A DNA stretch of 64,000 bases from positions 3,008,001 through 3,072,000 of the forward strand of contig OZ241863.1 in assembly GCA_965203055.1 (NCBI GenBank), in the 5' to 3' direction. The position numbers and the translations under genes are program-made. Shown here in pieces: positions 58,001 through 64,000 of the stretch (the first letter of the stretch is position 1; each line of letters begins with the position of its first letter). Under the pieces are notes generated by a model. That model was not told the DNA's origin, ran no database searches, and was given only the letters and a program-made list of their open reading frames with translations. This DNA comes from Spirochaetia bacterium. GTDB lineage: Bacteria > Spirochaetota > Spirochaetia > SZUA-6 > Bin103.

Positions 58001-58010
58001 AGTGCCCGCC
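58001..58010 (+). repeat. Left direct repeat AGTGCCCGCC (candidate target-site duplication)
   Basis: Identical to 63194-63203; abuts the left TIR. Confidence 0.75.
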
Positions 58011-58640
58011 GGCGCACTTCCGATTTGTTGGTAGACCCTCGGTTTCAGCGACGGCGCGGGAGCTGGTGGAGCAGGCGTCCGGCAAGAGCAGCCGGCAGGT
58101 GATGCAGTTGCTGGCCGAGGTGGACCCGGAGCTGGCGGCGTCGGCGGATCGGGCGCGGCCCCTGGGCGGCGGGCGCTGGGAACTCAAGGCGGTGATCGAC
58201 GATGAGTGCCGGCGTGGCTTGGAGCGGCTCAAGGAGCTCCTGTCCCACGTTGATCCGCACCTGCCGTTGGGGCAGCTCATGGGGCGGCTGGTGCGGGAAG
58301 GGCTCGACCGCCACGACCCGGCCCGGCCGCCGCGCGGGCGGCGCGCCGCGCCGGCCAAAGGAGCCGAGCAAACTTCGGCGGCGAAGACGCGGCGCCTCGG
58401 CCGGCAGGCTGCGACGACGGGCACGGCGCGGGCTGCGCCGCCGGCGCGGACCGAAACTTCGCCAGCGAAGACCGGCGGCGCGACCGGGGCCGCTGCCGCT
58501 ACGTGGACCGCACCAGCGGGCGCCGCTGCGGCTCCCAACACCTGCTGCAGATCGATCACGTCGTGCCGTCATCTTACACTGGGACTTGGGCTTGGCCGCC
58601 AAGCGGCCTGACGCTTACCTACATTTTGGAAATGCGCCCC
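58011..58640 (+). mobile_element. Internally deleted (MITE-like) copy of the HNH element
   Basis: Both ends retained; collinear homology to 61567-63193 with four internal deletions. Confidence 0.8.
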
Positions 58641-58754
58641 ATGACAGACGTCCGCTTGCCGTCAAGGCATCAAGCGAGCACGCTGATTCGGTTTGACGCC
58701 CAGACGGGCGGTGAGTCGATGCCGCGCTTGGGCCTTGAACCTTGAACAGACCAC

Positions 58755-58791
58755 TTGCCCATACGTACCAAACGTGAGATATTGATACGTA
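58755..58791 (+). promoter_or_regulatory. TA promoter/operator
   Basis: TTGCCC-N17-GATATT with two ATACGTA boxes (58761-58767, 58785-58791). Confidence 0.55.
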
Positions 58792-58799
58792 GCAGCGTC

Positions 58800-59063
58800 A
58801 TGAGCACGAAACTCACCCTGAGCGTCAACGCTACGATCGTCCAACGGGCGAAGGAGTTGGCGAGACGGCGACGAACGAGCCTCTCCGGACTGGTTGAGGA
58901 GTATCTCCGATTTGCCAGCGCCGGCCTTGATGAGCGGCCCGCCGTCAGCAGCCGAGTTCAGGCGGTTGCCGAATCACTGCCGATGCCGCCGGACGCTACC
59001 TACGATCGCTTGCAGGAGCAGTACCTGCGGGAAAAGCTACTCGGTGCGGAAGATTCTGCTTGA
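58800..59063 (+). CDS. DUF6364-like RHH antitoxin
   Basis: MSTKLTLSVNATIVQRAKELARRRRTSLSGLVEEYL. Confidence 0.85.
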   Translation: MSTKLTLSVNATIVQRAKELARRRRTSLSGLVEEYLRFASAGLDERPAVSSRVQAVAESLPMPPDATYDRLQEQYLREKLLGAEDSA

Positions 59064-59508
59064 TTCCGACGTCATTCTGGACCTGTTCGTCTCGCGCGAA
59101 CCGCATCACACGGTCGCCTTGCATTTCTTCTCGTGCATCGATCTCGAGCGAGACACCATCAGCGCAACGGCGTCGCCGGTGGCTATGGCCAACGTCGCCT
59201 ACGTGTTGGCCAAGTTGAAGAATCAGGCATTTGCGGTGGGTAAACTGCGCGAACTCAGAACCATGATCGGGGTGTCTCCCATCAACCAAACGGTCGTGGA
59301 CCGTGCCCTGGCACGTCCGCATCGTGATTTCGAAGATGCCCTGCAACGAGAATGCGCGCTGGAGAATGGGATCGAGATTCTCGTGACTCGCAACACCCGC
59401 CACTATTCCAAGACCGACGTCGCTATCCTCTCACCGGCTGACTTCTTGCAGCTTCACGGCGCCGCGCTGGCGCTCATAGGCGGCGGCGGACCGGACAGAC
59501 CGACCTAA
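59044..59508 (+). CDS. PIN-domain (VapC-like) toxin
   Basis: ILLDSDVILD, DFEDALQ..CA, LVTRN..HY; overlaps antitoxin. Confidence 0.88.
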   Translation: MRKILLDSDVILDLFVSREPHHTVALHFFSCIDLERDTISATASPVAMANVAYVLAKLKNQAFAVGKLRELRTMIGVSPINQTVVDRALARPHRDFEDALQRECALENGIEILVTRNTRHYSKTDVAILSPADFLQLHGAALALIGGGGPDRPT

Positions 59509-61474
59509 TCCGCCAGCCGAACCAGAAGCTGCTTGCCCTCCAGCGTTTGGCGCGCCCAATACAGGTTCTGGTATTGATCGTAGCCGCCCTCGCTCTCTGC
59601 CAACCTTGCCGCGCCGGTCGCGGTGGTACCGCCGGACGGCGCTGCCCCGAAGGTCACGGTTGGAGCAGTCGTGTAACCGCTCCCACGGTCCGTGATCGTC
59701 ACCGACGCTACGCGCAGCGCCGCAGTGCCGGCGGCCGTGGCGCCGGCACCCGGCGCCGCGCCAAAGGTCACGGTTGGGGCAGTGGTGTAGCCGCTCCCAC
59801 GGTTCATGACATTCACCGACGTGACGCGCAGCGCCGCAGTGCCGGCGGCCGTGGTGCCGCCGCCCGGCGCCGCGCCAAAGGTCACGGTTGGGGCAGTCGC
59901 GTAGCCGCTCCCGCGGTTCGTGATCGTCACCGACGCTACGCGCAGCGCCGCAGTGCCGGCGGCCGTGGTGCCGCCGCCCGGCGCCGCGCCAAAGGTCACG
60001 GTTGGGGCAGTCGCGTAGCCGCTCCCACGGTTCGTGAGCGTCACCGACGTGACGCCGGTTTGCAGCACTGCGGTGCCGGTGGCCGTGGTGCCGCCGGACG
60101 GCGCCGCTCCGAAGGTCACGGTTGGGGCAGAGGTGTAGCCGGCCCCCGCGTTCGTGAGCGTCACTCCCTCTACTCTGGTCGTCCGTAACGTCGCGGTGGC
60201 GCTCGCGCCGGTGCCCCCTCCTCCCGAAAACGATACGGTTGGGGCAGAGGTGTAGCCGCTCCCCCGGTTCAATAGGATTATGTTCACCACACTACCGGAA
60301 CTTATCGTCGCCCATCCGATTGCCCGGGTGCCACCGGCGGCCTGCGGAGCGCTGAACGTTACGGTTGGACCAGACGTGTAGCCGTTCCCCCCGCTCGTGA
60401 GCGTCACCGTCCCTACTTCTGATCGCAGCGTTGCGGTGCCGGTCGCCGTGGTGCCGCCGGACGGCGCTGCTCCGAACGTCACGGTGGGAGCGGACGTGTA
60501 GCCGTTCCCCCGGTTCCCGATCGTCACTGACGCGACGCCGCCGGGCCCCACCGCGGTGCCGGTGGCCGCGGTGCCGCCGGACGGCGGTGCGCTGAACGTC
60601 ACGCTGGGAACCGACGCGTAGCCGCTTCCCGCAGTCCCGACCGTCACCGCGTCGACGGCGCCCGCCGCGGCGCCGGTCGCCGTGGTGCCGCCGGACGGCG
60701 GCGCGCTGAACGTCACGGTAGGGACGGAAGTGTAGCCGCTTCCTGCGGTCCCGACCGTCACGGCATCGACGGCGCCCGCCGCGGCGCCGGTCGCCGTGGT
60801 GCCGCCGGACGGCGGCGCACTGAACGTCACGGTGGGAGCGGATGCATATCCGCTTCCTGCGGTCCCGACCGTCACGGCATCGACCGAGGCCACCGCGGTG
60901 CCGGTTGCCGTGGTGCCGCCGGACGGCGCCGCCTCGAACGTCACGCCGGGAACGGACGCATAGCCGCTCCCCGGGTTCGCTATCGTGACCGCCTGAACCG
61001 TGCCGACGGCGCCCGGCTCGATCGTGTCGGAGCCCGACTGATCCGGGGCGGTGAGCGCCAGTACCACTGCGCCCGCCCGGACTTCCGGGGTGACCGTCCA
61101 CTCCGCGCCGGTGAGGTCGGACGCGAAGACCGGCTTGGCGCTCGTGGTCGTGAACGGCAGCGGGTGCCCGCCGATCGACACCTGCACCTTCTCGCCCTCG
61201 CCGCCGGTGATCCGCTCCCAGGCATACGGCGCGGAACGGTTGGTCGTTGCGCTCAGCAGGTCCGCGCCGTCACCAAAGTCAGCCGCGCTGATCGTCCAGC
61301 TCTTCTCGGCCGGCTGGGCCGGCTGCGGGGTTGGCGGCGGCTCGCTCGGCGGTTTACCCCCCCCCCTTGGGCCGGGTCGGCGGTCGCGGCGGGCGGGCCC
61401 GCCGCCTGCGCGCAGGCCATCAGCATGGCGATACCGGCGGCCAGCAACAGCGATACCAGCGACGCTCTGCCCAA
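59505..61474 (-). CDS. Repeat-rich surface lipoprotein, frameshifted at a G10 tract (61357-61366)
   Basis: AGGAGG RBS + TTG, signal MGRASLVSLLLAAGIAMLMA-C in one frame; 12 GSGY.SAPTVTF repeats in another frame; the frames meet at the homopolymer. Confidence 0.78.
61357..61366 (-). repeat. G10 homopolymer, candidate phase-variation tract
   Basis: 10 consecutive C on + strand; G8 or G11 restores the frame. Confidence 0.75.
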
Positions 61475-61684
61475 GATTATCCTCCTGCCGGGCGGTTGGT
61501 CCCAGGCGGCGGCACGGTAGCACGCGCTCCCCAAGCTGTCCATCCCCACATCGCTCGCTCGCTGCGGGGCGCACTTCCAATTTGCTGGTACCGATCCCGG
61601 CAGCAGCATCTGACGGAACGTCCAGCCGCTTGGAAATGCGCCGCCGAGTCACGCCCGCAGGTGGCATCTTCCGGGCCGAATAAC

Positions 61685-61713
61685 TTGACTCAAGTAGTTT
61701 CCATGATTATACT
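61685..61713 (+). promoter_or_regulatory. Sigma70 promoter, probably giving a leaderless HNH transcript
   Basis: TTGACT-N17-TATACT; ATG 7 nt after -10; palindrome ACTTGACTCAAGT over -35. Confidence 0.75.
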
Positions 61714-61719
61714 TATATC

Positions 61720-63104
61720 ATGTACAATCAGGCTTCCGACGAGGCCGTCACCACTACCGTATCAGCCCTCTCAGACGACCGCCTGCTGGAGCGGACCAAG
61801 GAACTTTCCGGCATCGAACACCATCTCGAAGTGGTCGTGATCGACCACCTGCGCGAGATTCAGAAGCGCCGCCTGTATCTGCGCCGCGGGTTCTCGAGCC
61901 TGTTCGATTACGCGGTGCGCGAGTTGGGTTACAGCGACGCTGCGGCGTGGCGGCGCATCAAGGCGATGCGGCTCTGCGCGGAGGTCGAGGGCGTGCGTGA
62001 GCGCCTGCAGAATGGCTCGATGACGCTGAACGCGGCGGCGCAGTTGCAGAACGCCTTCGACCGGCAGGAGCGCAAGAAGGAACGGGCGGCGCGTAGCGCG
62101 CCGGGCGGTGTCGGGTGCGGGGCTGCCGCTCAGTCGCAGAACGGCTCGGCGCCGCCGCGGTCGGCGGAGCGGAAGCCGGCGCCGGTGCTGGATCCGGAGG
62201 CGCGGCGGGAGCTGGTGGAGCAGGCGTCCGGCAAGAGCAGCCGGGAGGTGATGCAGTTGCTGGCCGAGGTGGACCCGGAGCTGGCGGCGCCGGCGGATCG
62301 GGTGCGGGCGCTGGGCGGCGGGCACTGGGAGCTCAAGGCGGTGATCGACGATGAGTGCCGGCGCGGCTTGGAGCGGCTGAAGGGCCTCCTGTCCCACGTC
62401 GATCCGCACCTGACGATGGGGCAGCTCACGGCGCGGCTGGTGCGGGAAGGGCTCGACCGTCACGACCCGGCCCGGCCGCCGCGCGGGCGGCGCGCCGCGC
62501 CGGCCAAAGGCGCCGAGCAAACTTCGGCGCCGAAGACGCAGGCGGCCTCGGCTCGCGGCGCTGCCTCGGCAACGAAGCAGGAGGCCGGCGCGGACAGCGC
62601 CGCTCCTTCGGCGGCGAGGTATCGGCTCAGGCGGCGGCGCAGCCGGGAGACGAAGCCGCTGACCGCTCGGACACTTCGGCAGCGAAGCCGGCGGGCGACG
62701 CAACTTCGGCGCCGAAGACGCGGCGCCTCGGCCGGCCGGCTGCGGTGGCGTGCGTGGCGCGGGCTGCGCCGCCGGCGCGGACCGAAACTTCGGAAGCTAA
62801 GGCCGGCGGCGCGACCGGCCGCGCCATCCCGGCGGCGGTCAAGCGCGAGGTCTGGCGGCGCGATCGGGGCCGCTGCCGCTACGTGGACCGCACCAGCGGG
62901 CGCCGCTGCGGCTCCCAACACCTGCTGCAGATCGATCACGTGGTGCCGTATGCCTGCGGCGGCGGCGCCGAGCCGAACAATCTCCGCCTGCTGTGCGCCG
63001 CCCATCACCGCTACCGCCACGCCGGCGCCGGGTTCGGCCGCCCCGGCGAGGATCGGCAGGCGACGGTTCCGTTCAGCCCTACTGCCGAAAGCGTAGACCG
63101 GTGA
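61720..63104 (+). pseudogene. DUF222-like/HNH endonuclease with a 1-nt frameshift near 62617
   Basis: N-terminal LSDDRLL...HL.EI..RRLY...GFSSLFDY; C-terminal CRY...C...QIDHVVP..GG...NNLRLLCAAHH in the -1 frame. Confidence 0.82.
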
Positions 63105-63193
63105 TCAAGATCGCCGAGAAACGTCATCTTACACTGGGACTTGGGCTTGGCCGCCAAGCGGCCTGACGCTTACCTGCATTTGGAAATGCGCCC

Positions 63194-63203
63194 AGTGCCC
63201 GCC
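63194..63203 (+). repeat. Right direct repeat AGTGCCCGCC
   Basis: Identical to 58001-58010; abuts the right TIR. Confidence 0.75.
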
Positions 63204-63250
63204 GGCGCGCAGCCCGACATATTGACTAGTGATACCATAATGAATACCAT

Positions 63251-63313
63251 ATGGCAACGGATATTACTATAGATCGTGTCGGACTCGTTGTGGTGCCGAG
63301 AACAGTTCTGTGA
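63251..63313 (+). pseudogene. AbrB/MazE-type antitoxin remnant
   Basis: MATDITIDRVGLVVVPRTVL* resembles the AbrB N-terminus; TACCAT repeats upstream. Confidence 0.5.
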
Positions 63314-63377
63314 CCGGGGAACTTGGTTCCTGGTACCGTTCCGGCACCAATAGAAGAATTCCCCTGAGGAGGCGGTT

Positions 63378-63587
63378 ATGATGGGCGGTAATAAAATCAG
63401 AGAGATGATCGAATTACTTTCTCACTTTTTTTACTCTGATGAAGATGGTTTTGATATTATTGTGGATAGAAATACTTTAACTTTCAGTGATCTTCGGCGG
63501 ACTGATACTTTTTGTATAAAGACCAAACAAAATTTTGAGATTACACTAGATGAAAGATATGGGCTGCACTATAGACCAAGAAAATAG
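63378..63587 (+). CDS. Small AT-rich hypothetical protein (69 aa)
   Basis: GAGGAGG RBS, intact ORF in strongly AT-rich DNA. Confidence 0.55.
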   Translation: MMGGNKIREMIELLSHFFYSDEDGFDIIVDRNTLTFSDLRRTDTFCIKTKQNFEITLDERYGLHYRPRK

Positions 63588-63739
63588 AGAGCTAACTGCA
63601 AGAGCTATATCGCTTCGCTCGCTTCCGGATGACGGGCATTGCAGTGGTGACGCCGTGATCCACCCAACAGCGTGCTCACCACCCCGCTACCGGCCGTGTT
63701 TGCTACCGGTGACCCCAACGCAGGAGTAGAGGAGCTGGC

Positions 63740-64000
63740 GTGATCATCAAGAGCAACCCCGGCCACGTCGATACCGAGCGGATCGTGCTGTTTCCGTTCG
63801 ACGATCATGGCCTGCCGTTTCGTCACGGGGTGCGGCTCCATCTGGTGAGCCACCGGACGCCGGTGGACCGCACCCGCATCGTGGTTCCGCCCGGACCTCC
63901 CGGCGCGCCCGACAGCAAGCGCGTCATCTACTACGGCACGGTGCTCCGGGTCGGCGGCGAGCTGTGGATGTGGTATCTCGGACAGGGCGACGACGACCAC
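63740..64000 (+). CDS. Hypothetical protein, possibly beta-propeller glycosidase-like (3' truncated by window)
   Basis: GAGGAG RBS + GTG; open to window end: MIIKSNPG...LFPFDD...YYGTVLRVGGELWMWYLG. Confidence 0.65.
   Translation, partial: MIIKSNPGHVDTERIVLFPFDDHGLPFRHGVRLHLVSHRTPVDRTRIVVPPGPPGAPDSKRVIYYGTVLRVGGELWMWYLGQGDDDH

Follow-up and report, generated by a model that had tools for sequence, protein, structure and literature searches.

How can a stretch of DNA move as a single piece when it encodes no transposase? This question is raised by a 5.2-kb unit in a 64,000-nucleotide stretch of a Spirochaetia genome (G000:C1:3008001-3072000; hereafter "the window"), where two copies of an element carrying an HNH nuclease gene bracket a toxin-antitoxin (TA) pair and a lipoprotein gene, and one 10-bp direct repeat surrounds the whole. 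A sequence-only reading of this DNA had offered two answers: mobilization in trans, or a new mechanism driven by the HNH family itself. Our data favor the former, given an ISKra4-family insertion sequence (IS) in the same genome with the same ends and 9-10-bp duplications, and they leave the latter unneeded for this genome. With a probability of roughly 0.55, we read the 5.2-kb unit as a compound transposon of two transposase-less HNH cassettes, moved by an ISKra4-family transposase acting in trans.

Geometry of the unit and its flanking repeat

Element limits were set by the shared end core (GGCGC...GCGCC), which places copy 1 at 58011-58638 and copy 2 at 61568-63192, both on the forward strand and thus directly oriented. 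Copy 1 (628 bp) has both terminal repeats intact and several internal deletions, with the N-terminal part of its gene and the HNH motif gone. Copy 2 (1625 bp) also has both terminal repeats, shows a deletion near its left end relative to other copies, and carries a frameshifted gene, the N-terminal 304 aa lying in one frame and the HNH domain in another (62355-63104); contigs from other copies carry one extra base at 62616. Since copy 1 is internally deleted and copy 2 frameshifted, both HNH genes of the unit are broken. Alignment of the two copies gives four blocks of 90-95% identity, separated by large gaps.

The direct repeat, AGTGCCCGCC, occurs at 58001-58010 beside the left end of copy 1 and at 63194-63203 beyond the right end of copy 2. 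Identity between the left and right flanks runs on to 15 bases (up to 58015 and 63208), as the sequence-only reading had reported. One extra C (63193) separates the right end of copy 2 from the repeat, and this one-base offset recurs at other copies of the element. While the flanks outside the two copies match at 10/10 positions, the inner flanks do not match (5/10 for copy 1 alone and 4/10 for copy 2 alone), and copy 2 alone scored 0 in a second duplication test that considered lengths of 8-11 bp and allowed a one-base offset. The composite geometry claimed earlier, with directly oriented copies, an outer duplication and unmatched inner ends, is therefore real. As in a compound transposon, two IS-type copies bracket the cargo, the outer left and outer right ends are intact, and one target duplication lies around the whole unit with none around the single copies.

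The flanks of all other HNH-element copies differ from AGTGCCCGCC, so the repeat is not a constant part of the element, a possibility that the sequence-only reading had asked to be checked. The word has three matches in the window (0.53 expected), two of which are the outer flanks. The third exact match, on the minus strand at 62317-62326 within the HNH gene of copy 2, is probably due to chance, given the 0.53 matches expected per window. Among 5000 mismatched flank pairs, 9/10 was never reached and 10/10 arose at a rate of 0.0032; the pairs behind the 10/10 draws were not itemized, and we take them to be the same outer pair, which was itself in the pool, so that this rate is not an independent estimate of chance.

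Ends shared with an ISKra4-family insertion sequence

The end core GGCGCAYTTCC is found at the ends of HNH elements and also bounds, on both sides, a 1521-bp repeat of which the genome has about ten copies. This repeat is an IS (e.g., G000 273724-275244) encoding a 467-aa protein that scores 214.6 bits against the NCBIfam model for ISKra4 family transposases (NF033572, cut-off 205) and is assigned to UPF0236 by Pfam. Eight genomic copies score above the NF033572 cut-off, and the eight copies with open frames are nearly uniform in sequence (pairwise DNA identity: median 100%, minimum 98.2%).

The terminal inverted repeats of the IS (GGCGCAYTTCCAA...) match those of the HNH elements end for end. 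In an alignment of eight ends (left and right, from the IS, the reference HNH element, and copies 1 and 2), 16 columns are invariant within the first 23. Left ends have a common motif (AATTTG..GGTA), and right ends have another (AAAAYG.AGGTA.GCGTCAGGC.GC), with a continuation common to the IS and HNH elements for about 35 bases. Because left ends share one continuation and right ends share another, the HNH element carries the left and right ends of this very IS; the two share only these ends, not the transposase. A fourth end type, with the same core followed by AAAGTGTGTTGGTGACTGCCGGCC, occurs at G000 1281228, 1727359, and 4102301.

Target duplications of the two kinds of element are also alike in length. 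Among ten paired IS copies, seven have flanks matching at 10/10 positions, one at 9/10, and two at 8/10. The 8-11-bp test, run with a full-length reference, yielded 15 HNH elements with both ends; when copy 2 is left out, nine of the remaining 14 score at least 3, a value reached by about 1% of 20,000 mismatched flank pairs, and three of the duplications are perfect (10, 9, and 8 bp). One IS copy sits inside an HNH element at 623.7 kb and a second directly adjoins an HNH end fragment at 1.2215 Mb, indicating that the IS was active after the HNH elements spread. A related IS in another genome, G010 (65% protein identity), keeps the same ends as the IS of G000 and makes 9-bp duplications; the ends therefore belong to the IS lineage.

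Mobile insertion cassettes, described for MIC231 and IS231 in the Bacillus cereus group, consist of two IS-type inverted repeats around one or more passenger genes, lack a transposase, measure 0.7-3 kb, and are moved in trans by the transposase of the cognate IS (PMC6199540). The HNH elements, about 1.7 kb long and thus within this size range of about 0.7-3 kb, are bounded by a pair of inverted repeats akin to IS ends and contain no transposase gene, their only long open reading frame (ORF) encoding the HNH protein. Given these IS-matching ends and target duplications, the HNH element is a non-autonomous, passenger-carrying derivative of the ISKra4 family that, like a mobile insertion cassette, has another gene (here, HNH) in place of the transposase. 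Since the cassettes carry its end sequences, the ISKra4-family transposase of the same genome probably moved them, an ordinary kind of borrowed mobility.

Formation of the unit and evidence at the site

The most economical account, in two steps, would explain the single outer duplication, its length, its one-base offset, and the lack of duplications around each copy. In some donor, a TA-lipoprotein module would first have received one cassette on each side, with a separate duplication around each cassette, the flanked genes having been copied from a locus like the one now found at 2.454 Mb. An ISKra4-family DDE transposase acting in trans would then have acted on the two outermost ends, the left one of copy 1 and the right one of copy 2, and the whole 5.2 kb would have inserted upstream of a PhyH gene, making the 10-bp duplication. 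We infer movement of the 5.2 kb as one unit solely from this duplication, and trans action of the transposase is likewise an interpretation, drawn from the shared ends and the matching duplication lengths.

The arrangement itself is not an artifact of assembly, since all four junctions occur in contigs from public sequencing runs. Among contigs of four runs (from four studies), the left outer junction was found in 4/4, the inner-left in 3/4, the inner-right in 1/4, and the right outer in 2/4. Contig depth at the inner-left and right-outer junctions was below that of the left flank in several runs. The run records describe sponge or marine metagenomes, or coded organisms, which suggests that the host is a sponge-associated bacterium. 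The exact inner-junction word had no match in genome_contigs or metagenome_contigs, nor did the exact right repeat plus flank in metagenome_contigs.

A comparison with relatives at this site reaches only part of the way. Relatives of the same genus are too diverged, having the PhyH gene at 85-88% identity, and beyond this gene they cannot be aligned to the right flank of the unit in the window; when positions 58011-63203 were removed in silico, they aligned only up to GCAAG, the rest being unconvincing. The genome G011 is unsuited as an empty-site comparator, the sole matching flank outside the shared modules being 77% identical. The 540 bp to the right of the unit (63204-63740) have a G+C content of 53-59%, compared to 65-72% further on, and contain a 69-aa ORF without a family. 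Contig depth to the right of the unit was far below that of the left flank in three of the four runs and zero in one (X5), and the right flank seems to vary between populations.

The cargo and its second copy

The cargo begins after a 92-bp spacer (58639-58730), which extends from the right end of copy 1 to the start of homology with the 2.454-Mb locus and has no other match in G000 (alignments of at least 60 bases) or in 40 relatives. On the forward strand follow an antitoxin candidate of the DUF6364 family (58800-59063; PF19891, E 5.5e-16) and a PIN-domain, VapC-like toxin candidate (59044-59508; PIN_3, PF13470, E 1.5e-15) whose GTG start, as read from the sequence, overlaps the antitoxin end; the DUF6364-like and PIN assignments proposed earlier are thus borne out by the Pfam matches. 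The lipoprotein gene (59505-61474, minus strand) contains twelve repeat units of about 114-126 nt. Its signal peptide with lipobox precedes a G10 tract (ten C at 61357-61366 on the forward strand) that puts the signal-peptide frame and the long repeat frame out of register, in agreement with the poly-G-split gene described in the sequence-only reading.

The cargo (58731-61559) occurs a second time, at 2454468-2457301, with an overall identity of 94% (antitoxin 98.9%, toxin 98.5%, and lipoprotein repeats 91%). No HNH element or end core lies near this second locus, and its upstream flank, syntenic in G011, is 97% identical there. This synteny indicates that the 2.454-Mb locus is the older context and that the cargo in the window is the derived copy. 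The homopolymer tract is 10 bases long in the window and 12 in the second copy (G000 2457097); by frame arithmetic, joining the signal peptide to the repeat domain in the window would need +1 or -2. Metagenome contigs include a +2 variant at the tract, which may come from paralogues.

Cargo homology stops a few bases from the left end of copy 2, within a run of (CGCT)n that lies upstream of the lipoprotein gene, and in G011 an HNH element lies at the same spot in the opposite orientation. The 5' region of the lipoprotein gene has 26 BLAST matches in G000, at about 24 loci. Five of these matches, at four loci, have an HNH element less than 300 bp from the upstream region, compared to 2.6% of random positions (such loci include 946018, 2467430, 2729392, and 61566 of the window), which suggests that the zone upstream of lipoprotein-family genes is a preferred landing zone for HNH elements.

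Between G000 (2452900-2457301) and G011 (L038, G011:C1:1775000-1786000), identity is 97-98% over the TA-lipoprotein module with its upstream flank and about 90% for the HNH elements, whereas the sole flank compared outside the shared modules is 77% identical. This difference suggests that modules were recently exchanged between the G000 and G011 lineages, which are placed in different genera.

The HNH-element family and evidence against movement by the IS

With a full-length reference copy as query, HNH elements were found at 60 loci in G000, 34 of them with at least 1200 aligned bases; a BLAST search with copy 2 likewise returned many copies at 88-94% identity. An intact passenger has 454 aa. 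The sequence-only reading had called it DUF222-like, a label that we do not retain: at E values up to 1, Pfam found no DUF222 (PF02720) in an intact copy, the only matches being PF01844 and PF14279, with HNH the only domain type. Solved structures gave only weak matches, to the HNH domain. In a protein atlas, DUF222 is present on 23% of the members of one look-alike cluster of the HNH protein.

Several observations weigh against movement of the unit by the ISKra4-family transposase. No empty site or second location of the unit was found in the 40 relatives, two public collections, and four runs, and no joint skipping 58011-63203 occurs among the joints listed (15 of 71) from contigs of the four runs. 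Of the earlier claim that the 5.2 kb moved as a unit, the outer duplication thus stands, while the empty allele or second insertion site did not materialize. The 15-base flank identity, which takes in the five opening bases of the end repeat (GGCGC), is not fully explained. The HNH copies are also old: among 31 copies with a single alignment of at least 1200 bases, median pairwise identity is 91.1% and the maximum is 94.8%. As the IS copies are identical to one another and the HNH copies reach no more than this, the present transposase has not visibly amplified the HNH elements.

The conservation and distribution of the HNH gene point the same way. Across 17 full-length intact frames, which were chosen as open (a choice that biases only against stop codons), the ratio of nonsynonymous to synonymous substitution rates (dN/dS) is 0.16 for residues 1-125, 0.34 for residues 166-250, and 0.36 for the HNH part, with values of about 1 in the two low-complexity linkers. 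Judged by these ratios, the ORF is under purifying selection, which is unexpected for a mere passenger. Of 23 genomes from the bacterial family, 20 contain the HNH family, whereas the ISKra4-family transposase of G000 is found in fewer, 15 of the 23; the HNH family was detected in none of the 17 genomes that represent the order's other families. The family model, at E values up to 0.001, has no match in G011 or G007; it finds only a fragment in G012 and only weak matches in G017. Lastly, the ends of the G010 HNH elements do not match the ISKra4-type IS of that genome.

End repeats differ between genomes. HNH elements of G017 (L046, L048) have related but different inverted end repeats (GGSTCTTC.AGG.TT.CGTGTGG), while those of G010 (L059, L061) have unrelated 25-bp end repeats (GGTKCGAACG.C.GAAA.CGGTATTG), one of them (L061) with a 9-bp duplication, ATCCGGCCG. 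No autonomous IS with the ends of the G010 HNH elements was identified, the 16 arm-core matches in that genome giving only HNH-sized pairs. The HNH proteins of G010 and G017 are homologous to those of G000, including at the N-terminus. We considered whether the N-terminal domain switches together with the end repeats and rejected this idea, since the G010 protein, from elements with other ends, has a clearly homologous N-terminus.

Most HNH elements also contain an internal third copy of the end core, inverted relative to the left end, 50-800 bp from that end and before the HNH promoter. In copy 2, it lies at 61632-61642 on the minus strand (GGCGCATTTCC), and one HNH element of G011 is broken exactly within it. 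The left end of copy 1 is a variant type that elsewhere heads a larger unit, in which an MmeI-like restriction-modification gene is followed by the HNH gene (L054, G000 1395500-1405900; L004). Pfam matches in this larger unit are Eco57I, MmeI_Mtase, and MmeI_TRD, and an insertion of IS21 type (IstB, Mu-transposase C domain) splits it.

Alternative explanations

The same geometry could arise without transposition of the 5.2 kb as a unit. If a single HNH-type element had inserted and made the 10-bp duplication, recombination between homologous HNH sequences could afterwards have brought in the cargo, by way of a circular intermediate of a copy plus cargo or by a double crossover with incoming DNA that carried the cargo between two HNH copies, leaving an outer duplication and no inner ones. 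Partners would not be lacking, with 60 loci of HNH-element similarity in the genome; the 90-98% identity of cargo and HNH elements with G011, set against 77% in the outside flank, is suggestive of module exchange between lineages, and the lower contig depth at junctions in several runs hints at structural variants at the site. However, for this explanation the donor must already carry the cargo between two direct HNH copies, an arrangement that is the composite itself; no single-element allele was seen; and the genome has an active transposase whose element matches in its ends and makes duplications of the right length. We regard later recombination as the main rival, less likely than the compound transposon. 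That the 10-bp repeat is instead a chance match, a word favored as target, or a piece of the element end is scarcely credible: the genome is G+C-rich and the word does occur a third time, on the other strand inside copy 2, but the flanks of all other copies differ, the mismatched pairs never reached 9/10 and produced 10/10 only in what we take to be the outer pair itself, and the length and placement of the repeat, including the one-base offset, are as found at other copies.

Two further possibilities assign the HNH gene a larger role. The nuclease, alone or as a helper, could drive element mobility by an undescribed mechanism, to which the match with ISKra4-type ends would be secondary; selection on the ORF across copies, large HNH families in genomes without a detectable ISKra4-family transposase, and the G010 elements with other end repeats and a 9-bp duplication would all fit. 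Yet in G000 both the end repeats and the duplication length are those of the IS, the related IS of G010 retains these ends as a property of the IS lineage, both HNH genes of the composite are dead, and the N-terminal domain does not change along with the end repeats. We also know of no HNH enzyme that makes staggered-cut target duplications, and consider an HNH-driven mechanism very improbable. Somewhat less improbable, though still unlikely, is that the HNH gene is a selfish gene residing in transposase-less elements and borrowing any transposase at hand, rather than an inert passenger. End repeats would then have been swapped between genomes (ISKra4-type in G000 and G011, others in G010 and G017), the selected nuclease might aid its own element (e.g., through DNA breakage leading to copying by repair), and the composite would be a by-product of a two-layer parasite.

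Relation to known systems and implications

By analogy with mobile insertion cassettes, which the HNH elements resemble in their IS-type repeats, passenger gene, and lack of a transposase, trans movement may apply here as well. Unlike MIC231, the parent IS of the HNH elements belongs to the ISKra4 family, and the passenger is a 454-aa HNH nuclease that is open in many copies and spread over 60 loci. Gene mobilization has been reported for composites that have a non-autonomous element at either end (PMC13367494, PMC4133298). In TIME-COMPs and in an integron of Acinetobacter johnsonii flanked by miniature transposable elements with inverted repeats (MITEs), two transposase-less copies bracket cargo and the whole unit is target-duplicated (PMC13367494, PMC4133298, PMC3934969). 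The unit in the window shares this arrangement. However, the TIME-COMPs and the MITE-flanked integron derive from Tn3-family or other elements, whereas the flanks here are ISKra4-derived cassettes of 0.6 and 1.6 kb, and the cargo differs in being a TA pair and a lipoprotein gene.

REP13E12 of mycobacteria, a multi-copy HNH gene, is listed among repetitive elements (PMC10589994). The HNH elements are like REP13E12 and other DUF222-HNH repeat genes in that an HNH gene is present in many copies, but differ in having no DUF222 by Pfam. A full-text search found no literature treating ISKra4 together with HNH.

A mobile unit that lacks a transposase thus ceases to look paradoxical, because its ends are those of an ISKra4-family IS active in the same genome. 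The locus offers a worked example of how two dead cassettes can make a mobile package of a TA pair and a variable surface-lipoprotein gene. Of greater interest is the persistence of the HNH gene and the change of end repeats between genomes: present at 60 loci, under selection, found in 20 of 23 genomes of the family, and bounded by differing end repeats, this gene is a testable case of hitch-hiking on borrowed transposition machinery.

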